Notes: generated by a model from the letters alone, not told the origin. 64,000 nucleotides of DNA from Deltaproteobacteria bacterium RIFCSPHIGHO2_01_FULL_43_49 (GCA_001798075.1 MGRG01000002.1:46631-110630); one strand, 5' to 3'; numbered from the stretch's first letter, positions 3,393-50,752 are shown. Numbers and translations are program-made.

Positions 3393-4916
3393 AAAATAAA
3401 AATAAACAATAAGGAAGTTGAGGTAGCGGAGGGGACGACGGTTTTGAAGGCAGCGCTGGCCAACAAAGTTGATATCCCTTATTTTTGTTATCACCCCAAA
3501 CTCTCGATTTCCGGCAATTGCCGCATGTGTCTGGTCAACATCAAGGGCCAGAACAAACCGGTCATTTCTTGTCGCGAAAGAGTGCGGGAGGGGATGGAGG
3601 TTGATACCAAATCAGAAGAAGTCAAAAAAATGCAGCAGGGAGTTTTAGAGTTTATTTTGGTCAATCATCCTTTGGATTGTCCTATCTGTGATCAATCGGG
3701 TGAGTGCGATCTGCAGGATAATTATTTTAAATTTTCGAAATTTCCCTCCCGCCTGGAAGATCAAAAAATCCATAAACCCAAAGTCAAATCACTGGGTCCT
3801 CTGGTCACACTTGATGATGAGCGCTGCATTGTCTGCACGAGATGTGTGCGATTTTGCGATGAGGTAGCAGGCACTCATGAACTTTGTGTGACCGAGCGTG
3901 GAGGACACTCCGAACTGACGACTTACCCTGGAAAAGAGTTAAAAAATCCTTATTCACTTTGCACAGTCGATGTTTGCCCCGTGGGAGCACTCACTTCCAC
4001 CGATTTTCGTTTCAAAAAACGGGTCTGGTTTTTGAAAACGACCCCTTCAATTTGTACCGGCTGTGCCACCGGCTGTAACATCAAGATGGATTGGGATGAT
4101 TCGGTGGTTTATCGCTACCGTCCCAGAGAAAATGAGGCGGTCAACCAATGCTGGATGTGCGATGAAGGAAGGCTTTCCTATAAATTTATTAATGATGCGA
4201 ACAGGGTTTTTGAACCTTTGCTCAAAAAACATGGGGAGTTTGAAGAAATAACTTGGGAAGGGGCTCTCAAACATATCGCTGATATTTGCTATGAAAATCC
4301 CAAGGTTCATTATATCGGTGTTTTATCGGCTCAAGCCAGCTGCGAAGAAAATTTCACCCTCCATTCCTTTTTGAAAAATGTTTTTCCAAAAGCCCAATTT
4401 TTGACGACAAAAAAAGAAGTGCCACACCCATCCCACGATGAATTTTTAATCGATGCGGACAAAAACCCCAATTCAAATTTTTTAGAATTGCTTGAAATTA
4501 AAGAAGCAGATGATTTTGCAAAAGAAGGGATATATTTTGTTTTGGAACATTTAACGAATGCTCAGAAAGAGGCCTTGATTATGGCCAAGCCAAAGATGGT
4601 TGTTTGGCTGGCCTCAAACTTAGGGGACGTTTCCCTTGCAGGGGGAACGTCCCCTAAGTTGTCCCCTCCGTTGTGGGCCGATGTGATTTTGCCAAAACCG
4701 ACTTTTGCAGAACAAGAAGGACACTTTATTAACAGACAAAAAAGACTTCAGAAAGCAAACAAGGCCTTCGAACCAAAGGGTCATGCGAGGCCTGTTTGGA
4801 TGGCTCTAGCAGAGCTTTCCAGAAAATTGGATAAGCCATTGGATTGGAATTCTTACCCAAATGTTTTTAAAGAAATGAGTCAGGAACTAAAATGGATTAC
4901 GCAATTGCAGCGCTAA
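3387..4916 (+). CDS. nuoG: NADH-quinone oxidoreductase subunit G (short form, 2Fe-2S plus 4Fe-4S N-terminal module)
   Basis: MVKIKINNKEVEV start at ATG 3387; the ORF-track start 3327 overlaps nuoF. CRMCLV, HPLDCPICDQSGECDLQ, CIVCTRCVRFC and CPVGALTS motifs. Carries an in-frame palindrome at 4618-4659. Confidence 0.85.
   Translation: MVKIKINNKEVEVAEGTTVLKAALANKVDIPYFCYHPKLSISGNCRMCLVNIKGQNKPVISCRERVREGMEVDTKSEEVKKMQQGVLEFILVNHPLDCPICDQSGECDLQDNYFKFSKFPSRLEDQKIHKPKVKSLGPLVTLDDERCIVCTRCVRFCDEVAGTHELCVTERGGHSELTTYPGKELKNPYSLCTVDVCPVGALTSTDFRFKKRVWFLKTTPSICTGCATGCNIKMDWDDSVVYRYRPRENEAVNQCWMCDEGRLSYKFINDANRVFEPLLKKHGEFEEITWEGALKHIADICYENPKVHYIGVLSAQASCEENFTLHSFLKNVFPKAQFLTTKKEVPHPSHDEFLIDADKNPNSNFLELLEIKEADDFAKEGIYFVLEHLTNAQKEALIMAKPKMVVWLASNLGDVSLAGGTSPKLSPPLWADVILPKPTFAEQEGHFINRQKRLQKANKAFEPKGHARPVWMALAELSRKLDKPLDWNSYPNVFKEMSQELKWITQLQR
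4618..4659 (+). repeat. P-type palindromic element (GGGGACGTT...AACGTCCCC), in frame inside nuoG
   Basis: ACTTAGGGGACGTTTCCCTTGCAGGGGGAACGTCCCCTAAGT. Near-perfect inverted repeat, encodes NLGDVSLAGGTSPKLS. Confidence 0.85.
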
Positions 4917-6148
4917 AAACAGCTTCGATCTTTCTTGTTGTGATCAGCATCGTACCCGTCTTGATCTGGCTGGAGCGAAAAGGTGCGGCCTATATCCAAG
5001 ATCGTCGTGGCCCCAATCGCGCCGCTATTTTGGGTGTGAGGCTGGGTGGGCTGATCAACAGTTTGAATGATGTCGTCAAACTTTTGTTCAAGGAAGATAT
5101 CATTCCAGCCAATGTCAACAAGCCCCTTTTTATTTTGGCTCCGATGATCGCCTTTTTTGTGGCAACGATTACTTTGGCGGTTATACCGTTTGCAGATCCA
5201 ATTCAGCTTGGTTCGACAAAACTTCTTCTGCAGGTCGCCGATTTGGATGCGGGGCTTTTGTATGTTTTTGCCGTCTCCAGTTTGGGAGTTTATGGTGTTA
5301 TGCTTGCCGGATGGGCAGCCAATAACAAATATTCACTTCTGGGAGGGTTGCGATCTGCTGCCCAGATGGTTAGCTATGAAGTTTCTTTGGGACTGGCTGT
5401 TGTAGGGATTTTTTTGATGGCGGGATCTTTGAAATTGACTGACATTGTGGCTTATCAGGGTTCTAACTTGTTTCATTGGAATATTTTGCTTCAGCCGGTT
5501 GCCTTCTTTATTTTTCTGACGGCGTTGTTTGCAGAGACCAATCGTTTGCCTTTTGATCTACCAGAAGGAGAATCCGAACTGGTTGCCGGTTTTCATGTTG
5601 AATACTCCAGCATGAAGTTCGCCCTCTTTTTTATGGCGGAATACGCCCATATCATTGTCGGCTCTTGTATCATTACAACTTTATTTTTTGGAGGCTGGCA
5701 TATTCCATTCGTTCCTGTCGATTTGATTCGGATGAATGCAGAACTCGTTGCACAGGGTTTGTGGATTGGTTTTGCTATTTTTTCAATCCTGGGTGGCGGG
5801 CTTTTGGTTAGGCGTTTCAAAAAAGGTAAGTATGGAGATTTGAGGGATTACGAGCCATTAGTGATTGGGGCACCAGGAATCCTGATAGGCTTTGCTCTCT
5901 TAGGTTTGTTTGCGATCTTCGCACAAGACTGGGAATTTCTTCCTTGGGGTAAAAATATTTTTATTGCCACCCTTCAAGCCGGTGTTTTTTTAGCGAAAGT
6001 TTTATTTTTCTGTTTCTTTTTTATCTGGGTGCGCTGGACGCTTCCCCGATTTCGCTATGATCAGTTGATGCGTTTGGGTTGGAAAGTGATGTTGCCCTTG
6101 GCATTGATAAATATTTTGGTGACGGGGTGGGTTGTTTTGCAAAGTTAA
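4892..6148 (+). CDS. nuoH: NADH-quinone oxidoreductase subunit H (ND1 homologue), long form
   Basis: LIWLERKGAAYIQDRRGPNR, AETNRLPFDLPEGESELVAGFHVEYS and RWTLPRFRYDQLM motifs. At 418 aa it is longer than the roughly 330 aa I recall as typical, with an extra hydrophobic segment before the last helices. Confidence 0.9.
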   Translation: MDYAIAALKTASIFLVVISIVPVLIWLERKGAAYIQDRRGPNRAAILGVRLGGLINSLNDVVKLLFKEDIIPANVNKPLFILAPMIAFFVATITLAVIPFADPIQLGSTKLLLQVADLDAGLLYVFAVSSLGVYGVMLAGWAANNKYSLLGGLRSAAQMVSYEVSLGLAVVGIFLMAGSLKLTDIVAYQGSNLFHWNILLQPVAFFIFLTALFAETNRLPFDLPEGESELVAGFHVEYSSMKFALFFMAEYAHIIVGSCIITTLFFGGWHIPFVPVDLIRMNAELVAQGLWIGFAIFSILGGGLLVRRFKKGKYGDLRDYEPLVIGAPGILIGFALLGLFAIFAQDWEFLPWGKNIFIATLQAGVFLAKVLFFCFFFIWVRWTLPRFRYDQLMRLGWKVMLPLALINILVTGWVVLQS

Positions 6149-6549
6149 GGGAATAATAAAGAGCAGCCACCTATCTTTTCTATCCAAATAAAATGCTTGT
6201 CTAGACTGAAAACATTGGCAGAAGAACTTTTGGCCAGACTTGCAATGTAACAATCGGTGAGATTAATTTTCTTACCAGTCTGTCTTAATCTTAAAGAAAG
6301 CTCTCCAGCCTCTTGCCAGTGTGTGTCGTTGCCTTGAATCCAATAAAGCGGTTTGAAATATTCTTTAAGTTTTTTGACTTCTTTTTCACCCCGCGAGCCT
6401 TGGACTAGTTCAGCCTGAATAATAGCAGCCGTGGCGACTTGGGCATTATCCAATAATGTGTCTACTGTTTGTTCGAGTTCAATGTTTTTCTTCAAGAAAT
6501 AGTCGATCCAGACGGAGGTATCAATCAAAACAAGATTATCTTTGGGCAT
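6145..6549 (-). CDS. vapC: PIN-domain ribonuclease toxin (VapC family)
   Basis: MPKDNLVLIDTSVWIDYF start typical of PIN toxins, taken at the internal ATG 6549, which overlaps the vapB 3' end by 14 nt. Its stop overlaps the nuoH stop in a shared TTAA. Confidence 0.8.
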   Translation of the reverse strand: MPKDNLVLIDTSVWIDYFLKKNIELEQTVDTLLDNAQVATAAIIQAELVQGSRGEKEVKKLKEYFKPLYWIQGNDTHWQEAGELSLRLRQTGKKINLTDCYIASLAKSSSANVFSLDKHFIWIEKIGGCSLLFP

Positions 6550-6733
6550 GACGGATCTCGTCGGCCGAAAGGTCAAACTTGAGTTTTCCTTTTAGGTCTT
6601 TTATTTTTGCTATTTGATGACGCCTTAGATAATCTTGGATGGCAGTCATGACCGCTTTCGCCTTTGTATTAGCTCGACTGACTTGTTGAAGGGTTTGGAG
6701 CACCTTACTGTCCAATGTAACTGTTGTGCGCAT
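6536..6733 (-). CDS. vapB: Type II antitoxin (VapB/DUF2191-like)
   Basis: 65 aa, MRTTVTLDSKVLQTL... start typical of small antitoxins. Lies immediately upstream of and overlapping vapC. Confidence 0.6.
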   Translation of the reverse strand: MRTTVTLDSKVLQTLQQVSRANTKAKAVMTAIQDYLRRHQIAKIKDLKGKLKFDLSADEIRHAQR

Positions 6734-6948
6734 TGTATAGGAATTATGTGCATTTTTTTAAGAAATGTCAATCAAAATTCAATAGAAATTGTGCACTTTT
6801 TAACCTAAGAGTAGAGCGTTGTTTATACAGCACTGAAAAATTGGAATGCCAAGTTTTCATTTACATATCTAGGTAAGGGAAATGGAGTGTAGGGGATACA
6901 GTTTTTAAAATATTTTTAGAAGCATAACCCATTGAAATTATTTGACTT

Positions 6949-13704: not shown

Positions 13705-14997
13705 ATGTTTAATGAATTTAATCCCTTTAACCCCAACTCAATTGTAACGCCCACATTATTTGCTGGGCGCCATGAACAAGTCTTGCAGATACTTAAAAAA
13801 CTAGCCCAAGTTCGTGAAGGGCTTCCCTCTAGCTTTGTACTTCAAGGAGAACGAGGTATTGGTAAAACGGCTTTGGCAAAACTTATTCTTCATGTTGCTG
13901 AGGCTAAAGATCCAAAATTGGAAAAACTCAATTTTTTGGCTAGTTATTATAGTGTCGAGAGAGGTCAAACTTTTGAATCGGTCTTGCAGGCATGTTTAAA
14001 CTCAATGACCGACCGTATGCCAGATACGGTTCTCAAACGGTTGACCAATCGGCTAGGGGGTTTTTTTAAGAATGGTAAGTTTACTATTGGGGCCTTTGGT
14101 GCCAGCGCTACCTATGAAGGTTTAGGCTCATCTACTCCAGAAGAAGCTTTGCTTGCTATGAAAGATCGTGCTGTCTCCATTTTTTCTAATATCATTAGTG
14201 GATTAGATGAGGTCCAAGATACAAAAAATAAGCGAGATGGAGTTTTATTAGTTATCGATGAAATCCATAATTTGAAAGACCTTTCAGGCACAGCACAGGT
14301 TCTACGTGCTATTGCTACAACATTAGATGTCAATCAGTTAGGCAAAATTTCTTTTATGATCATTGGCTATGCAGAAGGTATGAATCATTTTTTTGAGGGA
14401 GATCCATCTGCTCGGCGACATTTTGATTTGATAAATTTGGCCGTTATGCCTAGGCACGAAGCAAAGGAAGTGCTTATAAAGGGTTTTACAAGAACGGGTT
14501 TAACATATGATGAAAATGTTTTGGAAAAAAACATCGATGTTGCGGGTGGTTATCCTCATTCAATTCAGATTATTGGTCATAATCTTGTCGGCGTTGACGA
14601 AAATCAGCATATTGATCAAGACGATTGGGCAAAGGCTTTGCGGCGATCTGCTATTGAATTAACTCAAAAAGATTTTTCAGAATTTTATGATTTCAAGGGC
14701 AGGGGAACACTTCGTGAGACCGTATTAAACCTTTTAGCTCTGCGCGGACGGCCCATGACTAAACAGGAGATAAAAAAACTCAGCGATGGAAAAAACATTT
14801 ATACAGAAACCTGTTTAGGAGCTTTGAAAAAATCAGGAGCCATCAAAGAAACGCCAGACAGAACCATTGTGCTTCACTCAATGCTTTTCCGAGCAGCGAT
14901 TCTCATACACCTGTACACACATGCACAGGAAAACCAATCCTATAGTGATTTGATCAAAAAAATTAAGTCGCTCAACAACAAAACCGATTCAATTTAG
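13705..14997 (+). CDS. AAA+/STAND-like ATPase (ORC/Cdc6 or Arch_ATPase-type) with C-terminal winged-helix domain
   Basis: FAGRHEQV...GERGIGKTALAK (Walker A), LLVIDEIHN (Walker B), GGYPHSIQIIG (sensor-2-like). C-terminal LNLLALRGRPMTKQEIKKL looks like a wHTH. Confidence 0.75.
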   Translation: MFNEFNPFNPNSIVTPTLFAGRHEQVLQILKKLAQVREGLPSSFVLQGERGIGKTALAKLILHVAEAKDPKLEKLNFLASYYSVERGQTFESVLQACLNSMTDRMPDTVLKRLTNRLGGFFKNGKFTIGAFGASATYEGLGSSTPEEALLAMKDRAVSIFSNIISGLDEVQDTKNKRDGVLLVIDEIHNLKDLSGTAQVLRAIATTLDVNQLGKISFMIIGYAEGMNHFFEGDPSARRHFDLINLAVMPRHEAKEVLIKGFTRTGLTYDENVLEKNIDVAGGYPHSIQIIGHNLVGVDENQHIDQDDWAKALRRSAIELTQKDFSEFYDFKGRGTLRETVLNLLALRGRPMTKQEIKKLSDGKNIYTETCLGALKKSGAIKETPDRTIVLHSMLFRAAILIHLYTHAQENQSYSDLIKKIKSLNNKTDSI

Positions 14998-15161
14998 GAA
15001 TAGAAGTAAATCATCTCAAAAAGAATTTAAGGGAGATGGAGACTTAACCTAAGCGGTACCCCAAATATGAAATGGGTCATCAGCTTTCCCATGGATTTAA
15101 GCCGTGAAGTGTTCTAAGTGAGACTTCTTCTATGAAAAAGAAATTGCAAGGGGAGAGATAA

Positions 15162-16001
15162 ATGAGCTTTTACAGATATTTCAAATTTGAAGATAGTTTA
15201 AAAACTCTGTCCTCACTTTGCCTTCGCATGTCAGATCCACGTCATTTTAATGACCCTTTCGAGTTCAACCCAGTAATCGATTTAAGTGATATTACTTATG
15301 ACAAAGCCACTGTTTATTTTGGTTCTGAGAAGGGGCTTGAGGGTATTTACAGAGAGAAAGGCACTAAAGAACCATATACTCAATTTAAAGAAAATTTTTT
15401 AAAAACTGAACTGAAGGGTTTTGTTAATAAATGGCTGGATAATCGTCATGTGCATGAGGAAAAGATGAGTTTTCAAAGCGCCCTCTGCCCAAGGTTTAAT
15501 GTTGTTTGTGGCTCGTTCACACCATTATCAATTTTGATGTGGTCTCACTATGCTGAAAAACATTCAGGCGTGGTAATTGAGTTCAATCAAAATGAATCTC
15601 CCTTTTCACGAATACAGAGAATAGGAAGATTGATAAATGTGAATTATGAAGACAAAAGACCTCTTTATAAATTTGGATTTGATCATAGCGAGCTAGAACT
15701 CCTTGAAAAATTCAACCAAGTTGCAAGAACTAAATATACGTGTTGGGGCTATGAAAAAGAGGTTCGAGCCGTTTTGCCGGTGGGAGATGATATAGTGAAA
15801 ACACGTGTAATAAAAAAGTTAGATGATCATTATTACCTTTCAATTACTCCGCGATCAATTTCATCAGTTATCATGGGATCTCGAATAGAAAATACCAGCT
15901 ATGAAGCGCTGAGAGGAATTTTAAACCAGGAATTTTTTAAGCATATTCAGTTAAAAAAATGTTTTTTGTCGAAAAGTAAATTCGAATTGGAAATCGAATA
16001 A
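15162..16001 (+). CDS. DUF2971-family protein
   Basis: Family hallmarks as I recall them: FYRYFKF...LRMSDPRHFNDPFEF, ILMWSHYAEKHSGVVIEF, WGYEKEVRAV and SSVIMGSRI. SD GGGGAGAG upstream. Confidence 0.75.
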   Translation: MSFYRYFKFEDSLKTLSSLCLRMSDPRHFNDPFEFNPVIDLSDITYDKATVYFGSEKGLEGIYREKGTKEPYTQFKENFLKTELKGFVNKWLDNRHVHEEKMSFQSALCPRFNVVCGSFTPLSILMWSHYAEKHSGVVIEFNQNESPFSRIQRIGRLINVNYEDKRPLYKFGFDHSELELLEKFNQVARTKYTCWGYEKEVRAVLPVGDDIVKTRVIKKLDDHYYLSITPRSISSVIMGSRIENTSYEALRGILNQEFFKHIQLKKCFLSKSKFELEIE

Positions 16002-16006
16002 AAAAA

Positions 16007-16040
16007 GTCCTTGGAGTTCCAAGGGCTTTTCTATCTTTGC
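16007..16040 (+). terminator. Rho-independent terminator after the DUF2971 gene
   Basis: GTCCTTGG-AGTT-CCAAGGGC stem-loop followed by TTTTCTATCTTT. Confidence 0.6.
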
Positions 16041-16041
16041 T

Positions 16042-16226
16042 CCGCGAGGTGGATTCGCAAAACCGTTAGCAATTTGGGTGAGAAAGGCGTCTCGGAGGCG
16101 CTTGCGACAGCGGGGGCTATAATCATGCAAGCGCCGAGAGACGAGTGGGTGTTTTGGGGCGCTCCCCGAAACAACCCACGTCCTTTCGAATCCCAAATTG
16201 CGGAAGGTTTTGCGATATATGTCGCG
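16042..16226 (+). repeat. H3 Y-shaped structured repeat, copy 1 (variant)
   Basis: Basal stems CGCAAAACC/GGTTTTGCG and GCAATTTGGG/CCCAAATTGC. Apical hairpin GCGCTTGC...GCAAGCGC with a GGGGGCTATAAT loop. 3' side hairpin GAGTGGGTGTTTTGGGGCGCTCCCCGAAACAACCCACGTC, then CTTTCGAA. Confidence 0.8.
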
Positions 16227-16271
16227 AAATAAATCCTTGGAATCCCATCCTAGCTAGTTTACACTTCGTTT

Positions 16272-17030
16272 ATGGCCGATTTTGAAACCGACATTCCTGA
16301 TTTAGGCGAGATTGATGTTCCAACCGGTTTGGATGATCTCCTTTCAGAATCAACTCGCAAAAAGCAAGTGGTGGGGAGTTGGGGGTTTCACTCCAATTTG
16401 AATTTCACAAAAATGTCTACCGAAGAGACCAATGTCTGGTTTTTTGAACAGGTCTTTAACTTTTTGCGGGCTTTTTTTGGTTTGGTGGTTCCAGACCATA
16501 TGGAAGTCATCACTTATAATGCCGTCAAGCAGATCAAGAAAGAAAACCTAAATCCAATGACTTTTTTGGATGAACTGATGTTGGTGATGAAAAATTTGAA
16601 TGAACCGTTGTGGGTCATTCGCTTGCATTTAAACCTGGTTGGATTTTTACGCACTGATTGGGATCCAGATAACTTGGTCCGCTTTCAAATCCAAGAGCCG
16701 GCCAATTTTGTGGTTTGGGGTGGGCCGGACGAAAACGGTTTTCAAACCTTTTCGATCAGCTATGCTTTGTTTTCGAATCAAAAACTAAAAGGCGAAGATT
16801 CTTTATTATGGTCGATTAATCAGCCGTTGTTGGAAAAGGCTATGAAGAAGTGGGAAAAGCAATCAGGCCATCGCATTGAAGTCGTACGTGGCAACAGCAA
16901 AGATTTAAATTTGTATCAGCACGGTTTTAAGGAGCCGGCCCCAACTGGCGCCAAACCGTTTGGCACTACGCAACAACCCGAAGAACCTTCCGAAGATAAA
17001 ATTCCGGATCTAGATGACCTAGACATTTAA
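16272..17030 (+). CDS. Hypothetical protein with acidic IPDL motifs at both termini
   Basis: 252 aa. N-terminal DIPDLGEIDVP and C-terminal KIPDLDDLDI. No recognisable domain. Flanked by H3 repeats. Confidence 0.6.
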   Translation: MADFETDIPDLGEIDVPTGLDDLLSESTRKKQVVGSWGFHSNLNFTKMSTEETNVWFFEQVFNFLRAFFGLVVPDHMEVITYNAVKQIKKENLNPMTFLDELMLVMKNLNEPLWVIRLHLNLVGFLRTDWDPDNLVRFQIQEPANFVVWGGPDENGFQTFSISYALFSNQKLKGEDSLLWSINQPLLEKAMKKWEKQSGHRIEVVRGNSKDLNLYQHGFKEPAPTGAKPFGTTQQPEEPSEDKIPDLDDLDI

Positions 17031-17069
17031 AATCTTCTCCGACCTATACGATTGGGGTTGTTTCCTTAA

Positions 17070-17234
17070 GTGACGAAAGCTTCCGCTCGTTGGATTCTCA
17101 GGGACGTGGGTTGGTTTGGGGAGAGCCCCAAACCACCCACTCCGCTCTCCCCCGCCAAAATATGAATAGCCCCCACAAAGAGTTGGCGGGGTCCGAGAGG
17201 CCCTTCGAATCCAACTCGCTCGCGCTTTCGTCAC
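17070..17234 (-). repeat. H3 Y-shaped structured repeat, copy 2 (reverse orientation), nested in an outer hairpin 17048-17258
   Basis: The reverse complement reads GTGACGAAAGC...GAGTGGGTGGTTTGGGGCTCTCCCCAAACCAACCCACGTC...GCTTTCGTCAC, with the same module order as copies 1, 3 and 4. Confidence 0.8.
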
Positions 17235-17263
17235 GCCAGTCGAAAACAAACCCAATGCACAAG

Positions 17264-17308
17264 CACTCCAAACTACAGCTATAGTTCGAAGCGCCCCTGC
17301 GAAAAATG
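17264..17308 (-). repeat. Linker hairpin L (reverse orientation)
   Basis: Reverse complement CATTTTTCGCAGGGGCGCTTCGAACTATAGCTGTAGTTTGGAGTG matches 22109-22151 and 28374-28419. Confidence 0.75.
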
Positions 17309-17329
17309 CACAATTTAGTTGGGAGAAAT

Positions 17330-17480
17330 GAAAAGGCGCGAACGAGCTAGGTGAGAAGGTGTCCACAGTCCCGCCACACTGATTGGGGGCCTAATACCTG
17401 GCGGAACGAGGATAAAGTGAGATTTTGGGGGCCTTCCCAAAATCGAGCGGCCTTCGAACCTGGCGAGTGGAAGCCTTTTC
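17330..17480 (+). repeat. H3 Y-shaped structured repeat, copy 3
   Basis: GAAAAGGC-GCG-AACGAG...CCGCCA(loop with TTGGGGGCCTAATA)TGGCGG...GAGATTTTGGGGGCCTTCCCAAAATC...CCTTCGAACCTGG-CGAGTG-GAAGCCTTTTC. Confidence 0.8.
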
Positions 17481-17529
17481 ATTTTGAATCAATCAACAAA
17501 AGCATTTTTCGAAAGGGTCGGGGAAGGGT

Positions 17530-19428
17530 TTATTTAATCTTTGACCCCACTGCCACATCCTTTGTGGGAGTTAAAATAGAAATCACATTGGCATCGCTGG
17601 CGGCGAGGAGCATGCCGTTGGATTCCACACCTCGAATTTTGACTGGTTTTAAATTGATCACAACCACAATTTTTCTGCCGACTAATTCTTCAGGGGGATA
17701 GTGTTGGGCAATGCCGGCTACAATTTGGCGTTTTTCATTTCCGAGATCAATTTGGAGTTTTAGCAACTTATCTGCTCCTTCTATTTTTTCTGCTGAAATA
17801 ACCTGTGCGACTCTCATGTCCACTTTTGCAAAGTCGGTGATGTCTATTGTGGGGGCTCGCGTCGCCCCCTCCGCCGGCAAAGCCGTCGGAGCCTCCCCCT
17901 CTCGCGAGCCTTGCTCGCTAGGCTTTTTTGATTGTTCCATAAGTTTCTCCTTTGGTTCTTCGATTCTTGGAAAAAGGTTTGGGCCTTTTTGGATGTTTGA
18001 GCCAAATTGCTCCAAGATTTTTTCCGCCGTACTTGGCAGAAATGGTTTTAGCAAATTTGCAATGGTTCGAATCGATTCTGCTACGTTATATAAAATTTCC
18101 TTCCGTGTTTGAGTTTCAGTAATTTTCCACGGTTTATTTTCGTTAATATAACGGTCTGTTTGGGTAATCCCTTCCCAAATGGCAGCGAGGGCTTCATGAA
18201 AGGCAATATCCCCCGACTTCATTTCCAGAAACCCCCCAACTTTTTTCTTTAAACCTTTCATTTTTTTGGCCAGAGGATTTGTTTTTCCTTTGACAGGAGA
18301 GATCACACCCTTTTGATACTGCTCAATCATTCCCAATGTCCTGCTCACCAAATTTCCAAGGCCGTTGGCCAAATCACCGTTGTAGCGACGGATGAAATCA
18401 TCCCATGTAAAATCACTATCCTGACCAAAACTGGAAGTCCTGAGCAAATAATAACGAAGGGCATCGGCTCCATAAGCATCAACAACATCCATCGGGGTCA
18501 CAACATTGCCCAACGTCTTGCTCATCTTTTCGCCTCTCAAGTAGACAAAGCCGTGGCCGAAAACAGATTTGGGCAAAGGTATTTTGGCCGCCATCAGCAT
18601 GGCAGGCCAAATGACACAATGAAAGCGGGTGATATCTTTGCCAATCACATGCAGATCGGCCGGCCACCACTTCTTAAATTTTGATTTTTGATTTTTGATT
18701 TTTGATTTTTCTTCGCCATAGCCAATTGCCGTGATGTAATTAATCAGTGCGTCAAACCAGACATAAACAGCATGCGTTTTGTCAAACGGAACAGGAATAC
18801 CCCATTTGACCGAAGCCCTGGAGACACTGATATCTTGAAGCCCCCCTTCGATTAGGCGCAAGATTTCATTGCGGCGCATTGTCGGCAAAATAAATTCAGA
18901 ATTTTTTTTAATGTGTTTGTAGAGTTTATCTTGATATTTTGAGAGTTTAAAAAAATAGTTTTCTTCATGGAGCCATTTTGGTTTCGATTTGTGGTTGGGG
19001 CACAATCCATCCACCAAATCTTTTTCAGTAAAGTAGGCTTCGCACGATTCACAATACCAACCCTCATACGGTTTTTTATAAATGTCACCGTTATCGAAAA
19101 GAGTTTGAAAAAGTCTTTCGACCCCCTTTTTGTGGCGCTCCTCGGAGGTCTGAATAAAATCGTCATAAGAAATTTCCAATTTTTTCCAGATCGCTTCAAA
19201 TTTTTGGCGCATCTGATCACAATAGATTTTGGGTTCCAGACCCGCCTGTCTGGCGGCCTTTTCGACATTTACACTATGCTCATCATTTCCCATCAGGAAA
19301 TGAACTTTGAAGCCTTGCATCCTTTTGGAACGGGCCAAGACATCCGCTCCAATTTTTTCATAGGCGGTTCCAATGTGGGGTAGATTATTGACGTAATCAA
19401 TGGCTGTCGTAATGTAGAATTTCTTCAT
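17530..19428 (-). CDS. metG: Methionine--tRNA ligase with C-terminal Trbp111-like tRNA-binding domain
   Basis: YVNNLPHIGTAYEKI (HIGH-type) and KMSKTLGN (KMSKS) motifs, Zn knuckle CESCEAYF...CPNH. C-terminal DMRVAQVISAEKIEGADKLLKLQIDLG. Contains two in-frame repeat insertions. Confidence 0.95.
   Translation of the reverse strand: MKKFYITTAIDYVNNLPHIGTAYEKIGADVLARSKRMQGFKVHFLMGNDEHSVNVEKAARQAGLEPKIYCDQMRQKFEAIWKKLEISYDDFIQTSEERHKKGVERLFQTLFDNGDIYKKPYEGWYCESCEAYFTEKDLVDGLCPNHKSKPKWLHEENYFFKLSKYQDKLYKHIKKNSEFILPTMRRNEILRLIEGGLQDISVSRASVKWGIPVPFDKTHAVYVWFDALINYITAIGYGEEKSKIKNQKSKFKKWWPADLHVIGKDITRFHCVIWPAMLMAAKIPLPKSVFGHGFVYLRGEKMSKTLGNVVTPMDVVDAYGADALRYYLLRTSSFGQDSDFTWDDFIRRYNGDLANGLGNLVSRTLGMIEQYQKGVISPVKGKTNPLAKKMKGLKKKVGGFLEMKSGDIAFHEALAAIWEGITQTDRYINENKPWKITETQTRKEILYNVAESIRTIANLLKPFLPSTAEKILEQFGSNIQKGPNLFPRIEEPKEKLMEQSKKPSEQGSREGEAPTALPAEGATRAPTIDITDFAKVDMRVAQVISAEKIEGADKLLKLQIDLGNEKRQIVAGIAQHYPPEELVGRKIVVVINLKPVKIRGVESNGMLLAASDANVISILTPTKDVAVGSKIK
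17851..17923 (-). repeat. GC-rich cassette of three tri-loop or short-loop mini-hairpins, in frame in the metG linker
   Basis: GGGGGC-TCGCGTC-GCCCCC, CCGCCGGC-AAA-GCCGTCGG and GCGAGC-CTT-GCTCGC. Encodes SEQGSREGEAPTALPAEGATRAP. Much more GC-rich than the surrounding sequence. Confidence 0.75.
18679..18710 (-). repeat. Heptamer array (AAAATCA)x4 plus a partial unit, in frame in metG
   Basis: The plus strand reads TTTTGAT x4 then TTTT. Encodes KSKIKNQKSK. Confidence 0.9.
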
Positions 19429-19491
19429 GGATACTGTTCAAATAAATTGCTTTAAGCTCCCTTCATTTTATATTAAGCTTGTTTCCTCCAG

Positions 19492-19750
19492 CTACCTGGC
19501 GCTGAGGGTGCTGAAAGTACGTGATATTTTTTGGGTTGAGGCATCAGACTCCACAAACCCTTCGGGTTTGCTTCGCGGCCCAGCAAAGCTGGGCCTTGAC
19601 ACAAAATTCGCTCGACTCTCGGCAATTTTAGCATTCTATCCCTTTTGTTAAAATTGCCCGGCAAAGGCTGGCTTTGCCAGCCTGCGCAGCAACTTCGCAG
19701 AAGTTGCGGAGTATAATAGAGACGACTTTCATCACCCTCATCGCCACGCC
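19492..19750 (+). repeat. H4: element bounded by terminal inverted repeats, made of five mini-hairpins
   Basis: GGCGCTGAGGGTGCTGAAAG (19498-19517) pairs with CTTTCATCACCCTCATCGCC (19726-19745). Internal hairpins are CAAACCC-TTCG-GGTTTG, GGCCCAGC-AAA-GCTGGGCC, GGCAATTTTA...TAAAATTGCC, AGGCTGGC-TTT-GCCAGCCT and GCAACTTC-GCA-GAAGTTGC. Confidence 0.75.
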
Positions 19751-19852
19751 GTCGGAAACAAGCTTCATTCAAAAAATAAGGTAGGTCACTTACGCAATTT
19801 ATTTTGCAAGTATCTCTTTCAAGGGTGTGGGGTAGTAAAGACAAAAGGTAAA

Positions 19853-20013
19853 AGTTGCCACGCGAACGAGGTGGGTGAGAAAAACCTCTCGGAACCCAGC
19901 CAAACCTTATGGGGGTTACAATAATTTGGCGGGGTGAGAGTGGAGTGGGCATTTTGGGGCTCTCCCCAAAATGACCCACGTCTTTTCGAACCCACCAAGT
20001 GGAAGTGGCAACT
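19853..20013 (+). repeat. H3 Y-shaped structured repeat, copy 4
   Basis: AGTTGCCAC-GCG-AACGAG-GTGGGT...CCCAGCCAAA(loop TATGGGGGTTACAATAA)TTTGGCGGGG...GAGTGGGCATTTTGGGGCTCTCCCCAAAATGACCCACGTC-TTTTCGAA-CCCAC-CAAGTG-GAAGTGGCAACT. Confidence 0.8.
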
Positions 20014-20035
20014 TTTAAGTTTGAAACTCCTTTTT

Positions 20036-20878
20036 TCATCCGTTCGCGAGTGTAAACAACAAGCTCTCTATGAGCAACTGCTTATTGGCATAGGTTTGTA
20101 GACCGCGAGTCGCATTTTGGATGGCTGTCCATTGGGTGGTCAGTCTTTCGGTTGCTTTTGCATCTCCGTTTTCCAAGATTTTTTTGTGCCACAGTTGCTC
20201 CAATAGTATCAAAACATAAGGGAGTTTTTCGGACTCTTCACTCAATGTTTCACTCAAATCCAAAATTTTACTAGGAGTTAGACCTTGAGAGAGTTCTGTT
20301 AGTTTTTGGTTGATTTCACCGGCAAGATTCACATCAAAATCAAGAGCCATTTTGAGACTTCCCATGGCAAAGTTAGTCTTTTGTTCCGCCTCTACTTGAG
20401 ACAAACCATTTCGCACCAGATATTGTTTGATTTGTTCATGACTCAAAGGACCAAAAGTCATTTGTCTACATCGTGAACGGATAGTTGGCAGAAGTCTTGT
20501 CGGTTGATGAGAAATCAAAATAAAGTAAGTGGCCTGTGGTGGCTCCTCCAAAATTTTTAGGAGGGCATTGGCACCGGCTTCTGTCATCATGTGAGCATTG
20601 TCGATAATAACTACTTTCACCTCTCCTTCCAGGGGATGAAGGTAAATTTTTTGTTTAAGCCGGCGTAGTAACTCTACCTTGATGGTCAATCCTTCCGGTT
20701 CAATAAAGTGTAAATCAGATTTGGAACAACGCAAAGCTTGTACGAGTCCCAGCGCGATTTGTTTTTTTCCGATCCCTTCAATTCCAGAAAAAAGATAGGC
20801 GTGAGCCAGCTTCTTTTCTTTAAGCTCTTTTTTTAGTTGTTCAATCTGATTTTTATGACCAAAAATATTTTGCCACAT
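20036..20878 (-). CDS. holB: DNA polymerase III subunit delta prime
   Basis: LAHAYLFSGIEGIGKK, NALLKILEEPP and LPTIRSRCRQMTF motifs. Confidence 0.85.
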   Translation of the reverse strand: MWQNIFGHKNQIEQLKKELKEKKLAHAYLFSGIEGIGKKQIALGLVQALRCSKSDLHFIEPEGLTIKVELLRRLKQKIYLHPLEGEVKVVIIDNAHMMTEAGANALLKILEEPPQATYFILISHQPTRLLPTIRSRCRQMTFGPLSHEQIKQYLVRNGLSQVEAEQKTNFAMGSLKMALDFDVNLAGEINQKLTELSQGLTPSKILDLSETLSEESEKLPYVLILLEQLWHKKILENGDAKATERLTTQWTAIQNATRGLQTYANKQLLIESLLFTLANG

Positions 20879-21537: not shown

Positions 21538-21618
21538 GGTGGTGGGTCCTGTCCCTCCGTGTTTTTGTGGGGGCCCCTAACTAAACCCCACAACAAACAC
21601 TCCGGGCCACCCACCACC
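21538..21618 (+). repeat. H1 hairpin repeat, copy 1 (core plus GGTGGTGGG/CCCACCACC layer)
   Basis: Core CCTGTCCCTCCGTGTTTTTGTGGGGGCCCCTAACTAAACCCCACAACAAACACTCCGGGCC. Confidence 0.85.
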
Positions 21619-21955: not shown

Positions 21956-22004
21956 AAAAAATCTTCTCCGGCCTTTGCGAAAAACGTTTTCATAATACAG
22001 AGTG

Positions 22005-22090
22005 GAGCTTCGGGGTCCTGTCCCTCCGTGTTTTCGTGGGGGCCCCTAACTAAACCCCACGACAAACACTCCGGGCCACCCCTTCGCTTC
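22005..22090 (+). repeat. H1 hairpin repeat, copy 2 (core plus GAGCTTCGGGGT/ACCCCTTCGCTTC layer)
   Basis: Same core carrying a compensated T-A to C-G change (TTTTCGTGGGG / CCCCACGACAAA). Confidence 0.85.
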
Positions 22091-22151: not shown

Positions 22152-22173
22152 TTTTTGTGTGCCAGGTGGGTGA

Positions 22174-22362
22174 GGACAGGAGTGGGGTGGACAAAACATT
22201 TGTGCGGGAACGAGGGCGTATCGAGTCAATAAAAATAATATTCGTTTCTGCAGATAGAGCTGACGGCAGGTAAGATACTATCTGCATCTTTATGAAACGA
22301 AATTATTTTTTTGACGAGATAGCCCGAAGTGGAGCACCGTTTTGAACACCCCACTCCTGCCC
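22174..22362 (+). repeat. H2 long-hairpin repeat (about 190 nt), copy 1
   Basis: GGACAGGAGTGGGG...TGCAGATAG-AGCTGACGGCAGGTAAGATA-CTATCTGCA...CCCCACTCCTGCCC. Confidence 0.85.
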
Positions 22363-22380
22363 GAAAGCCATCCACAATTT

Positions 22381-28133: not shown

Positions 28134-28176
28134 CATCTTCTCCGACCTTTGCGAAAAACGCTTTCATAAATAGATG

Positions 28177-28356
28177 GAGCTTCGGGGTCTGAATCAATGA
28201 GTTGAAAATGACAGATTCTGTGTGGAGTGGCGGATCCTGCCCCTCCGTGTTACTGTGGGGGCCCCTAACTAAACCCCACAGCAACACTGCGGGCCACCCA
28301 CCACTCCACCATTTGTGCGTCATTTTCAACCTTTGAAAGCAGTTACCCCTTCGCTC
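28177..28356 (+). repeat. H1 hairpin repeat, copy 3 (expanded, four nested layers)
   Basis: GAGCTTCGGGGT / AGTTGAAAATGAC / GGAGTGGCGG / core / CCACCCACCACTCC / GTCATTTTCAAC / ACCCCTTCGCTC. Confidence 0.85.
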
Positions 28357-28373
28357 CAATCATTATGCTGATG

Positions 28374-28419
28374 CGTTTTTCGCAAGGGTGCTCCAAACTA
28401 TAGCAGTAGTTCGGAGTGC
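28374..28419 (+). repeat. Linker hairpin L
   Basis: CGTTTTTCGCAAGGGTGCTCCAAACTATAGCAGTAGTTCGGAGTGC. Its 5' part pairs with CCTTTGCGAAAAACG at 28146-28160. Confidence 0.75.
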
Positions 28420-28438
28420 TTGTGTGCCAATTGCGCTA

Positions 28439-28629
28439 GGGCAGGAGGTGGGGGTGTGAAAAACATTGTGCGGGAACGAGGGCGTATTGAGTCAAATAAA
28501 ATAATATTCGTTTCTGCAGATAGAGCTGACGGCAGGTAAGATACTATCTGCATCTTTTGAAACGAAATTATTTTTTTGACGAAATAGCCCGAAGTGAAGC
28601 ACCGTTTTGAACACCCCCACCTCCTGCCC
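28439..28629 (+). repeat. H2 long-hairpin repeat, copy 2
   Basis: The basal stem is changed on both arms (CAGGAGGTGGGGG / CCCCCACCTCCTG). The apical loop is identical to copies 1 and 3. Confidence 0.85.
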
Positions 28630-28661
28630 GGAAGCAATTGGTAGATAGGTCGGAGAAGGGT

Positions 28662-37438: not shown

Positions 37439-37531
37439 CAACAAATCGACGGACCCTGTCCCTCCGTGTTTTCGTGGGGGCCCCTAACTAAACCCCACGA
37501 CAAACACTACGGGCCACCCATCGATTTGTTG
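37439..37531 (+). repeat. H1 hairpin repeat, copy 4 (core inside CAACAAATCGA/TCGATTTGTTG arms)
   Basis: Lies in the 127-nt divergent spacer between the EamA gene and the acs-like gene and ends 8 nt before the acs-like ATG. Confidence 0.85.
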
Positions 37532-40429: not shown

Positions 40430-41464
40430 TCAATTCTCCGACCCAAGTTCTTTCCAAATTAAATTATGAATCCTGGGCCGAAAGGCCTTGATTTTTTCGT
40501 TGGTGGCAGAAGGATGGATGCGGTTCGTCAGTAAAATCACCCAAAAATTTTTATCAAGATCAATCCACATGGAGCAACCGGTGTAGCCCAAATGACCAAT
40601 GGAATGGGGGGAGAAATAAGAGCCAGAAGAGGAACTGCCAAAGGTGGGGGTGTCCCAGCCTAAGACATACGTGCTGGGAGTTCCAGGTTCTAGGTTCAAA
40701 GTTCTAAGTTCGCTGAATTGATGAATAATGAATGTATGCAAATCCGAAGTTGTGGAAAAAAGGCCGGCGTGGCCAGCAACACCTCCCATTGCATAAGCGT
40801 TTTGATCGTGGACTTCGCCGTGGATCACTTTTTTTCGCCAGGGGCAGTCTTCGGTGGGGGCAAATCTTTTTGAGTGAATCGTGAATCGTGAATCGTGAAT
40901 CGTTTTGACAAAAAAAGTATCTTTGAGTCCCAAGGGTTTTGCAATTTTGTTTTGAAATAAAACATCAAGACTGACTGAACCTGCGTGTTCCAAAATTTCG
41001 CCCAGTAAAATATATCCGATGTCGCTATAAACGCATTGTGTTCCTGGTTTGAAAACAATCGGCTCTTTTAAACAAGCTTGTACAATATGTTCTTTTCCCC
41101 CTTTGGTTCCAACAAATGTCGTGGGGAGTTCGCGGTAGTAGGGCTTCCACGCCGGCAGACCAGAAGTATGAGACAACAAGTGAGCCACCGTCATTTCTTT
41201 GTGCGCTGGTAGCCTTGCCCCTCCCAACCATTGATAAACGGTATCGGTTAGTTTTAAAAAACCTTCTTGAACGAGTTGCATTGCCAATGTAGCTGTGGCG
41301 ACCGGTTTAGTAAGAGAGGCAATGTCAAAACAGGTTCCAGATCTTGCTTTGCCATAGTTCCCTTCATGAATAATATTGTTATTGTGTCCCACTAATAGAC
41401 TAGCGGATGGGAAAATGCCTCTTTCCACCGCTTGTTTCATCATTTGGTCGATTGCTGCGGTCAT
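40430..41464 (-). CDS. Serine hydrolase (beta-lactamase class C / PBP4*-like family)
   Basis: SLTKPV (S-x-x-K) motif. Start placed at the ATG forming an ATGA overlap with the ldcA stop. Contains two in-frame heptamer arrays. Confidence 0.85.
   Translation of the reverse strand: MTAAIDQMMKQAVERGIFPSASLLVGHNNNIIHEGNYGKARSGTCFDIASLTKPVATATLAMQLVQEGFLKLTDTVYQWLGGARLPAHKEMTVAHLLSHTSGLPAWKPYYRELPTTFVGTKGGKEHIVQACLKEPIVFKPGTQCVYSDIGYILLGEILEHAGSVSLDVLFQNKIAKPLGLKDTFFVKTIHDSRFTIHSKRFAPTEDCPWRKKVIHGEVHDQNAYAMGGVAGHAGLFSTTSDLHTFIIHQFSELRTLNLEPGTPSTYVLGWDTPTFGSSSSGSYFSPHSIGHLGYTGCSMWIDLDKNFWVILLTNRIHPSATNEKIKAFRPRIHNLIWKELGSEN
40685..40712 (-). repeat. Degenerate heptamer array (ARGTTCN x4 on the plus strand), in frame in the serine hydrolase gene
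   Basis: AGGTTCT AGGTTCA AAGTTCT AAGTTCG. Encodes part of SELRTLNLEPG. Confidence 0.7.
40874..40903 (-). repeat. Heptamer array (GATTCAC)x4 in gene sense, in frame in the serine hydrolase gene
   Basis: The plus strand reads GTGAATC x4 then GT. Encodes HDSRFTIHS. Confidence 0.9.
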
Positions 41465-42337: not shown

Positions 42338-42440
42338 CTTTGTTTGGAGCGAAGGGGTGGCCCGGAGTGTTTGTTGTGGGGTTTAGTTAGGGGCCCCCAC
42401 AAAAACACGGAGGGACAGGACCCCGAAGCTCCAAACAAAG
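42338..42440 (-). repeat. H1 hairpin repeat, copy 5 (reverse orientation; core plus GAGC..GGGGT layer plus CTTTGTTTG/CAAACAAAG arms)
   Basis: Starts 14 nt upstream of the ldcA ATG and generates the spurious N-terminal ORF extension GSCPSVFLWGPLTKPHNKHSGPP. Confidence 0.85.
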
Positions 42441-47063: not shown

Positions 47064-48215
47064 ATGAAGACGTCAATCCAAAAGCTCCTATTAGCCTGGT
47101 ACGATAAAAATAAGCGTCCACTTCCTTGGCGAAAGCCCCCACCCAATCCTTATAAAATCTGGCTCTCCGAGATTATGCTCCAGCAAACACAAGTAGAAAC
47201 GATGCTTCCTTACTACGAGCGATTTTTACAGGCCTTTCCCACGTTGAATGATTTGGCCAAATCTCCGCCTACAGAGGTTTTAAAACTTTGGTCGGGTTTA
47301 GGTTATTATTCGAGGGCCAGAAACCTTCACAAAACAGCGCGTAAGATCATCCAGCATTTTGGAGGTCGTTTTCCAACAACCAAAGAGGAGTTGATTAGCT
47401 TGCCAGGGATTGGTGATTATTCTGCCGGGGCCATTGCCAGCATCGCTTTTGGTAAAAAGGTTCCTGTTGTAGATGGGAATGTGATTCGGGTCTTGACAAG
47501 GCTTTTCGCCCTGAAAGGTGATCCCAAGGCCAAACCGTTGAAACAAAAGTTATGGAAATTGGCAGCACGTTTAGTTCCAAAAAGTTGTCAAGACCCGGCT
47601 TTGCCGGGCTGCGAAGCAAACTCGAAGAGTTTGCGGAGTAGAAATAGACCAGGTGATTTTAATCAAGCCCTTATGGAGTTGGGGGCGCTTGTTTGTTCGC
47701 CTAAAGATCCGAAGTGTCTATTATGTCCGCTGAAAAAGAGGTGTGTGGCAAAAATAAAAGATAAAATTAGCGAATATCCAACCCCAAGAGAAAAACTTCC
47801 GACCGAAAAAGTTTTTTTGGCCGCCGCCTTGATTGAAAAAAATGGTTCTTTTTTATTGGCACAACGCGGGAGTCAAAAACATTTACAATCAATGTGGGAA
47901 TTTCCGCAGGTGGCCGGAGAAGAAAAATCTTTAAGCGGCAAACAGCTTATTCAGAAACTTCAAAAAAAATATGGAATGGATATTGAATTAAAAGGACAAT
48001 TACCGGTGGTACGCCATGCCATCATGAACCGAAGGATCGTCATGACACCCTTTTTGTGTCGCTATCAAAAGGGGAGTCCCAAAATGGGAAAAGGACATGT
48101 GGCTTTTAAATGGATTGCGCCCGATCAACTAAAGGAATTTCCCACTTCATCCATTAATCATAAAGTGATCCAACATTTAAACCGCAAACATCAAGATCTT
48201 TTTTTGCCTTTCTAG
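47064..48215 (+). CDS. mutY: A/G-specific adenine DNA glycosylase
   Basis: LLAWYDKNKRPLPWR, PYKIWLSEIMLQQTQV, GIGDYSAGAIASIAFG, FNQALMELGA and the CSPKDPKCLLCPLKKRC Fe-S cluster, plus a NUDIX-like C-terminus. Carries an in-frame twin-hairpin insertion at 47592-47648. Confidence 0.92.
   Translation: MKTSIQKLLLAWYDKNKRPLPWRKPPPNPYKIWLSEIMLQQTQVETMLPYYERFLQAFPTLNDLAKSPPTEVLKLWSGLGYYSRARNLHKTARKIIQHFGGRFPTTKEELISLPGIGDYSAGAIASIAFGKKVPVVDGNVIRVLTRLFALKGDPKAKPLKQKLWKLAARLVPKSCQDPALPGCEANSKSLRSRNRPGDFNQALMELGALVCSPKDPKCLLCPLKKRCVAKIKDKISEYPTPREKLPTEKVFLAAALIEKNGSFLLAQRGSQKHLQSMWEFPQVAGEEKSLSGKQLIQKLQKKYGMDIELKGQLPVVRHAIMNRRIVMTPFLCRYQKGSPKMGKGHVAFKWIAPDQLKEFPTSSINHKVIQHLNRKHQDLFLPF
47592..47648 (+). 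repeat. Twin-hairpin element, in frame inside mutY
   Basis: GACCCGGC-TTT-GCCGGGC TGCGAA GCAAACTC-GAA-GAGTTTGC GGAGTAGAAATAGAC is homologous to intergenic 19665-19723. Encodes QDPALPGCEANSKSLRSRN. Confidence 0.8.
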
Positions 48216-50268: not shown

Positions 50269-50451
50269 GAGCTTCGGGGTTTCAATTGATCAGTTGAAAA
50301 TGACGGGCTTTATTTGGAGTGGCGGGTCCTGTCCCTCTGTGTTTTTGTGGGGGCCCCTAACTAAACCCCACAACAAACACTCCGGGCCACCCACCACTCC
50401 ACCAATCATCCGTCATTTTCAACTCTTGAGGATAGGCCACCCCTTCGCCCC
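50269..50451 (+). repeat. H1 hairpin repeat, copy 6 (expanded, four nested layers)
   Basis: Same layer order as copy 3 (28177-28356). Confidence 0.85.
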
Positions 50452-50522
50452 AACCATCTCGCACGATTCCTATGCACTTAATTAACTAAAAGGTAGGCGC
50501 TGCCTTATGGTAAAATATGTAA

Positions 50523-50712
50523 GGGCAGGAGTGGGGATGGGCAAAACATCGTGCGGGAACGAGGGCGTATTGAGTCAATAAAAATCATATTCGTTTCTGC
50601 AGATAGAGCTGACGGCAGGTAAGATACTATCTGCATCTTTTGAAACGAAATGATTTTTTTGACGAGATAGCCCGAAGTGGAGCACAGTTTTGAACACGCC
50701 CCACTCCTGCCC
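50523..50712 (+). repeat. H2 long-hairpin repeat, copy 3
   Basis: Carries the compensated change AATCAT / ATGATT where copies 1 and 2 have AATAAT / ATTATT. The apical loop is identical. Confidence 0.85.
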
Positions 50713-50752
50713 AAAAACGATTCGAGACTGAATTTACTTTAAATTTGGATTA

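Follow-up and report, generated by a model that had tools for sequence, protein, structure and literature searches.

The window examined in this study, a stretch of 64,000 nucleotides from Deltaproteobacteria bacterium RIFCSPHIGHO2_01_FULL_43_49 (GCA_001798075.1, MGRG01000002.1:46631-110630), harbors a family of Y-shaped structured repeats, here called H3, comprising five full copies and one expanded copy of a unit of approximately 165 nt. The most likely explanation is that this family is a new structure-defined variant of the bacterial interspersed palindromic repeats, and not a new RNA gene. The units are probably non-autonomous, structure-defined interspersed repeats that resemble either the repetitive extragenic palindromes (REP) and bacterial interspersed mosaic elements (BIME) or the miniature inverted-repeat transposable elements (MITEs), and that lie in intergenic gaps of one groundwater lineage. 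The observations that bear on this explanation are the repeat family itself, its fold, the covariation of its stems, its lineage-specific presence at gene junctions, the head-to-head pairing of its units and the absence of gene-like signals.

The initial annotation had reported four copies, and the results of a profile search, a covariance model and self-BLAST agree on all of them. The profile search placed the copies at 16047-16223 (+), 17061-17243 (-), 17321-17491 (+) and 19844-20025 (+), and the profile of these four found no comparable match anywhere else in the window. The limits given by cmsearch with covariance model R1 were 16055-16216, 17070-17233, 17328-17483 and 19850-20015, and self-BLAST, which is independent of the profile and covariance models, joined the four copies with E values of 1e-9 to 1e-19. 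A fifth full copy (c5) and an expanded relative (w19) were added to the family. Copy c1 (16055-16216, +; 147.6 bits, fold z-score -8.9), of the alpha type, has a DUF2971 gene on one side and a conserved 252-aa open reading frame (ORF) on the other, and an additional outer stem extends it to about 16043-16228. Copies c2 (17070-17233, -; 161.7 bits, z -8.4) and c3 (17328-17483, +; 120.9 bits, z -6.2) form a head-to-head pair flanked by the convergent 252-aa ORF and metG; c3 represents a subfamily in which helix P3a differs and hairpin P4 has no bulged A. Copy c4 (19850-20015, +; 157.2 bits, z -6.4) immediately follows the stop codon of holB and is antisense to the holB-metG operon, while c5 (57753-57912, -; 132 bits) lies antisense in the murE-murF gap, nested inside a beta-like outer stem. 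The window copies are 55-65% identical to one another, and c5 forms all 43 modelled pairs despite 42-54% identity to the other copies.

The expanded relative w19 (19478-19770, -, 293 nt) was recognized by its fold, with a weak covariance model match at 19567-19700 (E 0.007). Its core has the P3a/P3b/GAG/P4 organization of the family, except that P3 and P4 carry inserts of small G+C-rich hairpins, and its base is of a sequence-conserved 'beta' type (GGCGTGGCGATGAGGG.../...CCCTCAGCGCCAGGTAGC), common to w19 and to two copies on metagenome contigs (L025:3333-3493 and L028:2130-2292). Together with c4, it forms a head-to-head pair in front of metG. The G+C-rich hairpins in the w19 loops (19548-19601 and 19670-19720; e.g., GGCTGGCAAAGCCAGCC and GGCCCAGCTTTGCTGGGCC) recur at 47586-47648, and these inserts and their recurrence look like a REP-like mini-family.

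Taken singly, each of the four initially reported copies adopts the same Y shape (-75 to -106 kcal/mol; z-scores of -6.2 to -8.9 relative to dinucleotide shuffles), and the common fold and module order described in the initial annotation are present in all four. The two ends of a unit pair with each other as stems P1 and P2, both of which are free to vary in sequence, and between these stems the ends form a conserved asymmetric loop, GCGAACGAG opposite AAGYGGAAG. P2 is followed by a conserved helix, P2b (GAAAGG/CCTTTC), often preceded by tandem G-A mismatches. The center of the unit is a three-way junction that carries hairpins P3 and P4 and is flanked by CGTC motifs: P3a, which begins with CGTC, CCTC or TGTC, reads C[G/C]TCTC / GAGAG.. 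(CGTCTC/GAGACG in c4), the terminal loop of P3 keeps a conserved AC..GGG..TA..AA, and P4 is an imperfect palindrome of approximately 35 nt with CGTC after it in most copies. In c4, the 5' arm of P1 (TAAAAGTTGCCAC, 19849-19861) pairs with 20005-20017; the asymmetric internal loop, which contains two pairs, has GCGAACGA (19862-19869) on its 5' side opposite AAGTGGAA (19997-20004); the apical arm P3 (19885-19943) consists of P3a, a GGA/GA internal loop, a covarying P3b and the terminal loop; and the stretch 19944-19982 contains the side hairpin P4 with its bulged A and then, at the three-way junction, CGTC (all on the + strand).

The P1 arms differ from copy to copy (TCGCAAAACC, GTGACGAAAGC, AAATGAAAAGGC, TAAAAGTTGCCAC and GGTGAAAAAGTCGC), extensions of P1 specific to single copies run past the shared sequence, and a comparison of these arms revealed no terminal inverted repeats conserved between copies. 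In addition, neither of the two conserved subterminal motifs (GCGAACGAG and AAGYGGAAG) is the reverse complement of the other. The identity of the family rests in the three-way-junction core and the asymmetric loop formed by the ends, unlike that of ordinary MITEs. Several details of the initial annotation were borne out: the side hairpin occurs in three compensatory versions (GGGTGTTTT/GAAACAACCC, GGGCATTTT/AAAATGACCC and GGGTGGTTT/AAACCAACCC), and copies 1, 2 and 4 have a bulged A that copy 3 lacks. Others needed amendment. The basal stem, described as copy-specific, is indeed variable but is partly conserved within subfamilies (e.g., GAAAAGG/CCTTTTC in copy 3 and L028), and at the position of the proposed YTTTCGAA motif copy 2 reads CCTGAGAA.

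Covariation was assessed in 11 copies from five sources: the window and the metagenome contigs L023, L025, L028 and L035, the last of which took no part in model building. In the alignment of these copies, which was fitted to the model so that its counts are somewhat inflated, 94.3% of the cells pair, compared with 38-51% after a shift of the partners by one to three columns. Both sides have changed in 35 of the 43 pairs, and the observed values were reached by none of 500 shuffles. With an alignment of nine copies made by MAFFT only, RNAalifold still gave changes on both sides in 32 of 43 pairs. Among subfamily mates, which are 74-81% identical, double compensated changes stand against single changes as 3 versus 3, 6 versus 1 and 5 versus 3. 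Diverged copies still form 41-43 of the 43 pairs, and unpaired bases in the loops and junctions are conserved in all copies. The pairs are almost entirely Watson-Crick (419, with 10 G-U, or 2%, and 4 A-C). Under DNA parameters, the two strands of c4 fold equally well (z -7.8 and -8.0). Even so, the sequence of the family has a strong polarity, with scores of 120-160 bits for one strand compared with 11-14 bits for its complement. An evolutionarily maintained single-strand fold is well supported by these data, although correction of the palindrome arms by a template could mimic selection. The initial annotation had proposed a selected fold of either RNA or single-stranded DNA; the maintained fold stands, and a discrete RNA gene is not favored.

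The host clade consists of metagenome-assembled genomes from the Rifle aquifer labelled 'Deltaproteobacteria', and the window is identical to contig MGRW01000013.1 of GCA_001798335.1 and to JGI/ENA assemblies of the same population. Six further copies were found in metagenome contigs: one truncated copy in L023, two each in L025 and L028, and one in L035. Of the 17 loci returned by a scan of metagenome contigs for the P4 motif AGTGRGNNNTTKGGGGCNYTCCC, only those in L023, L025 and L028 are genuine. The eight matches to this motif in species-representative genomes were all due to chance and confined to the motif, and viral contigs gave none. Likewise, blastn of one unit against plasmids and phages found no match, and neither did a protein-database search with aligned peptides translated across the units, these peptides being too short for the size of the database. 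L035, a relative retrieved through its methionyl-tRNA synthetase (MetRS), carries a copy with a score of 104 bits, and the basal stem of this copy is a flawless helix of 32 bp. Subfamily mates of the window copies lie in other gene contexts: the mate of c1 (80% identity) is L025:3520-3683, within a type II secretion operon, and that of c3 (89% identity) is L028:1732-1889, beside a PEGA/TPR gene. Since subfamily mates are found at unrelated loci and the corresponding junctions are empty in relatives, these copies are best regarded as dispersed lineage-specific insertions rather than as a vertically inherited RNA gene.

The empty junctions were identified by comparison with six relatives in which MetRS is 65-78% identical and the gene order of the locus is conserved. 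In five of the six (L032, L034, L038, L039 and L040), holB and metG overlap or are at most 9 bp apart, and no copy of the family was found in any of these five; in the window, the two genes are separated by 607 bp containing w19 and c4. Similarly, the gap between metG and the conserved ORF is 34 bp in L034, where a 254-aa ORF is 82% identical to the 252-aa ORF of the window, versus 499 bp in the window, which holds c2 and c3. The sixth relative, L035, is not the closest to the window, and carries a unit in its holB-metG junction in the same orientation as c4, which suggests a preferred kind of site. At 20024-20038, a remnant of the metG start in its ancestral, overlapping position (ATGAAAAAAGG) is found at the stop codon of holB, and ATGAAGAAA appears again where metG really starts. 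ATGAARAAA is present on both sides of the w19 and c4 pair, and this repetition of the metG-start sequence looks like a short duplication around the insertion. Copies also lie inside operons (murE-murF and the type II secretion operon) and between convergent genes, and, relative to host transcription, four are sense and seven antisense.

Two ORFs run across units. A 188-aa ORF (19473-20039), opened by the metG-start relic, spans w19 and c4 and is annotated as a gene in several assemblies; this ORF and a 73-aa ORF across c1 (16011-16232) are probably spurious. A composite transposon formed by c1 and c2 around the 252-aa ORF was considered and rejected: the ORF is a conserved core gene, and L034 shows the same order without repeats.

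Adjacent units are arranged head to head, with their 5' ends facing, in all four pairs (c2/c3, w19/c4, L025 3333-3493(-)/3520-3683(+) and L028 1732-1889(-)/2130-2292(+)), an arrangement with a chance of about 0.004 under random orientation. The units share their intergenic blocks with other repeat families, and these blocks fold as giant nested hairpins; the whole intergenic block containing c2 and c3 (17031-17529), for example, forms a single nested hairpin. This block and another at 28134-28661, which holds different repeats, have identical inverted ends, TAAA(N)CTTCYCCGACC, and the left end is also found at 21956. The genes on either side use the terminal TA of these ends in their stop codons, and the motif was not found in any of the loci of the relatives. 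Blocks with such ends would fit a composite MITE of the TA-targeting (IS630/Tc1-like) kind with other repeats inside it.

A second family, H2, was also connected with H3. The H2 elements are long hairpins of approximately 200 nt at 22160-22375 (+), 28425-28645 and 50515-50720, 86-93% identical, and they do share the AACGAG/GAAGTG module, as the initial annotation had claimed. The loop at which the H2 ends pair, GGGAACGAG opposite GAAGTGGAG, matches the H3 loop, while the H2 body is otherwise unrelated. Thus, with the same loop on two unrelated bodies, the loop can be viewed as a shared 'handle', which is also written GAACGAG/GAAGTGGAA. A separate family of hairpin repeats of approximately 70-86 nt (GGGTCCTGTCCCTCCGTGTTTTTGTGGGGGCCCCTAACTAAACCCCACAACAAACACTCCGGGCCACCC) was observed in six copies, at 21539-21617, 22003-22088, 28227-28304, 37455-37520, 42348-42440 (-) and 50308-50397; their 87-100% identity indicates an expansion much more recent than that of H3.

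Signals expected of a gene were sought around the units. Rfam 15, which includes riboswitches, ribozymes, 6S, Y RNA, HEARO, IS605-orfB and further IS-associated motifs, gave no match in the whole window at gathering thresholds, and at E<=10 the region 15900-20200 yielded only weak matches, all of them outside the four reported copies; the strongest, AaHKsRNA22 (23 bits versus a gathering threshold of 39.8, E 0.33), falls inside w19 (19642-19726). A consensus scan of 15900-20100 found no promoter or terminator site at the unit ends and no counts above those of shuffles, a weak test that covers sigma-70 only, and no U-tract terminator follows the units. Several specific candidates were also set aside: a T-box or leader upstream of metG and a tRNA-like element were unsupported by Rfam or ARAGORN, the P1/P2 arms match their flanks or other window sequence no more than expected by chance, which speaks against guide RNAs, and the internal loops are of unsuitable size (judged by eye only) for a K-turn or C/D box. 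The evidence does not favor a discrete RNA gene, small RNA or riboswitch, given the lack of promoter and terminator, the occurrence in both orientations, the mostly Watson-Crick pairing, the folding of both strands and the lineage-specific insertions. Together with the insertions at compact junctions, this lack of evidence for an RNA gene points to a mobile or dispersed repeat.

Among known elements, H3 is comparable to the REP, BIME and REPIN elements, which are mobilized by the Y1 transposases called RAYTs (REP-associated tyrosine transposases). The shared features are extragenic imperfect palindromes with conserved bulges, mostly head-to-head dimers, a branched fold, a location between genes in unidirectional or convergent arrangement, and mosaic arrays that include other repeats. 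REP dimers are mostly head-to-head, and some are embedded in longer palindromes (Di Nocera et al. 2013, PMC3733652). The same report described a CGTC-tagged REP superfamily with no known transposase, in which stems of 8-9 bp start with AT and a CCA tail is present (PMC3733652); in H3, the P4 hairpin of approximately 35 nt is likewise followed by CGTC, but H3 breaks the stem and loop rules, and the resemblance is one of organization. H3 also differs from REP in its unit of approximately 165 nt with a three-way junction, compared with a REP hairpin of 20-40 nt that bears a GTAG or CGTC tag, in its internal hairpins P3 and P4, which are not copies of each other, and in the lack of a linked RAYT gene, the copies so far being few and diverged.

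MITEs and other structured repeats (Correia/NEMIS, ERIC, RUP, BOX, bcr1 and Nezha) are, like H3, non-coding intergenic elements of 100-300 nt that fold as long hairpins, are missing from the same sites in relatives and can give stop codons to their neighbors, as documented for BOX repeats (PMC3049150). However, MITEs have conserved terminal inverted repeats and target-site duplications, whereas the terminal arms of H3 vary and no regular duplication accompanies them. The ends of IS200/IS605 elements and of their derivatives without ORFs, the palindrome-associated transposable elements (PATEs), offer another parallel, in that the ends are asymmetric, terminal inverted repeats and duplications are missing, and imperfect subterminal hairpins contain extrahelical bases and have short conserved tetranucleotides next to them. 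The substrate of IS200/IS605 transposition is a strand-specific fold of single-stranded DNA. Yet the left and right hairpins of these elements are alike and their ends are not paired together, as the H3 ends are, and no TnpA is encoded near H3. Integron attC sites are likewise recognized by fold over sequence and show single-strand pairing of the ends, conserved extrahelical bases and a terminal structure that varies and is sometimes branched; in contrast, the H3 ends lack R''/R' core sites (RYYYAAC / GTTRRRY), H3 units occur in both orientations, and the window has no integrase or cassette array.

We infer the mobility of the units, a single-stranded intermediate and the type of enzyme. A unit would fold when its DNA becomes single-stranded, or when it is read through as RNA, and the ends, brought together by pairing, would present the conserved asymmetric loop, while further fixed bases would be exposed by the junction and its two hairpins, namely the bulged A, the CGTC motifs and the GGG..TA..AA loop. 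A protein acting in trans, with its gene located elsewhere, may recognize these conserved unpaired bases and move or copy the unit, often as a head-to-head dimer. Lineages of units that lose the fold would cease to propagate, and the stems would therefore covary while the loops remain fixed. Our leading guess for the enzyme, a tentative one, is an HUH/Y1 transposase of RAYT or IS200 type; it is prompted by the asymmetric ends without terminal inverted repeats, by the hairpins with extrahelical bases and adjacent tetranucleotides, and by a PF01797 (Y1 transposase) gene on the contig of one relative. It is rather doubtful, though conceivable, that H3 and H2 are both substrates of an undescribed mobilization or RNA-protein system that reads a folded single strand. 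In such a system, a protein would recognize the asymmetric GAACGAG / GAAGUGGAA loop and the CGTC-flanked three-way junction, leaving the stem sequence free; the elements might then represent a new single-strand (HUH-like or other) mobile class with a cargo-independent 'handle' or, alternatively, a new family of protein-bound structured RNAs of an uncultured lineage.

Several observations weigh against an interspersed mobile repeat. Neither a transposase nor a recombinase or reverse transcriptase emerged from a Pfam scan of nearly all window ORFs of at least 80 aa, and no autonomous partner of the units came to light; the Y1 or other transposase that the initial annotation had suggested searching for was not found in the window, and a PF01797 gene lies on the contig of one relative. 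No regular target-site duplication was seen at c1, c2, c3, c5, L025 or L035, neither the duplications nor a target motif are consistent among the units, and conserved terminal inverted repeats are lacking. Insertion polymorphism between near-identical strains, also raised initially, was not detected, as six such contigs agree across the repeats with no difference in presence or absence; filled and empty sites differ among the relatives instead. A further 20 kb of flanking sequence (L036 and L037) contained zero copies, and five of the six window copies lie within 4 kb, unlike the even scatter of a typical high-copy repeat. Finally, copies that are 55-65% identical pair almost perfectly, which is unexpected for decaying selfish DNA and would fit either selection on each copy for a host function or templated correction of the arms.

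The first of these alternatives would make the units cis-acting RNA modules in operon mRNAs, spread as DNA repeats and now kept by the host with each copy under selection, serving as mRNA stabilizers, processing sites, barriers to translational coupling or bidirectional terminators, as proposed for REP, BOX and ERIC. The copies do sit exactly between operon genes (holB-metG, murE-murF, and gspJ and the next gene) and between convergent genes, their folds are very stable (-75 to -106 kcal/mol), and old, diverged copies retain nearly all of their pairs along with the conserved unpaired bases. With seven of the 11 copies antisense and a strong polarity, however, transcription would usually yield the complement of the conserved loops; the same junctions are free of any element in five close relatives, and the U-tract expected behind a terminator is missing, so that we consider such modules unlikely. 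Still further from the evidence are independently transcribed, trans-acting small RNAs or protein-partner RNAs (like Y RNA, 6S RNA or guide-RNA scaffolds) in which the variable stems would be specificity elements. The strong covariation with conserved loops, the sequence polarity, and a size and three-way junction typical of protein-bound RNAs that match no known family could be read in this manner, but the unit ends have no promoter-like or terminator-like sites, G-U pairs amount to just 2%, the P1/P2 arms match nothing else in the window beyond chance, and the units are embedded in composite repeat blocks. Moreover, retron RNAs, the omega RNAs of TnpB or IscB and IS110 bridge RNAs would each have the gene of their partner enzyme next to them, but the Pfam scan of nearly all ORFs of at least 80 aa found no TnpB, IscB, IS110, Ro or integrase in the window, and reverse transcriptase, another candidate partner, is equally lacking; such RNAs are very improbable.

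Templated correction would instead explain the pairing as a mutational by-product, in which quasipalindromes are corrected by intramolecular template switching during replication and outer stems grow via inverted duplication of the flanks, with no selection on the fold. Helices that are almost all Watson-Crick with very few G-U intermediates, the many strand flips (GC to CG and AU to UA), which are impossible through wobble pairs, the flawless 32-bp basal stem of L035, the copy-specific extensions of P1 past the shared sequence and the nested palindromes formed by whole intergenic blocks all agree with this process. Correction should nevertheless erase conserved asymmetries, whereas the bulged A, the tandem G-A mismatches, the asymmetric loop and the unpaired bases are conserved across copies that are 42-60% identical and across genomes, and the presence of the family at unrelated loci would be left unaccounted for. 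We therefore regard a pure by-product as improbable, and a structure-defined interspersed repeat remains the preferred explanation.

Some other features of the window deserve mention. The genes neighboring the repeats include nuo, metG, holB, tmk, mur and gsp genes. Between nuoN and the 252-aa ORF, the region 13705-16001 encodes a STAND/AAA_16 ATPase (430 aa) and a DUF2971 protein (279 aa), where L034 carries a different gene of 282 aa; this pair may represent inserted defence-type genes. In addition, a PIN-domain toxin and a VapB antitoxin (6145-6760, -) interrupt the nuo operon between nuoH and nuoJ. Perfect tandem 7-nt arrays of 4.3-4.6 copies each lie inside genes at four loci, namely metG (18679-18710), murF (58222-58252), a beta-lactamase-like gene (40874-40903) and murD (60808-60839), with the metG and murF arrays sharing one unit, AAAATCA, in the coding sense; these could be in-frame repeat expansions or slippage-prone tracts in essential genes. 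Single palindromes, perfect or nearly so, are located at 61395-61428, 51936-51974 and 4617-4660, one of them a perfect 30-nt palindrome (CAGGGGAACGTCCCCCTG unit) inside murD. In one assembly (L009, ENA ERZ4903070), the metG stretch 17873-18028 is replaced by poly-C and then poly-T-like sequence, and the gene call is split; this sole variable stretch looks like an assembly artefact.

The combination of the handle with a three-way-junction core is unusual. If our explanation is true, repeats defined by their fold, and not by terminal sequence, would pry open compact operon junctions in this lineage, and a handle shared by two unrelated bodies, H3 and H2, would be a concrete recognition site for a protein. 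For annotation, 'hypothetical proteins' predicted over the units, such as the 73-aa and 188-aa ORFs, are probably not genes. The family also carries a caution for the discovery of RNAs, as strong covariation and conserved loops, which usually mark a functional RNA, are found here in elements that behave like mobile DNA palindromes.

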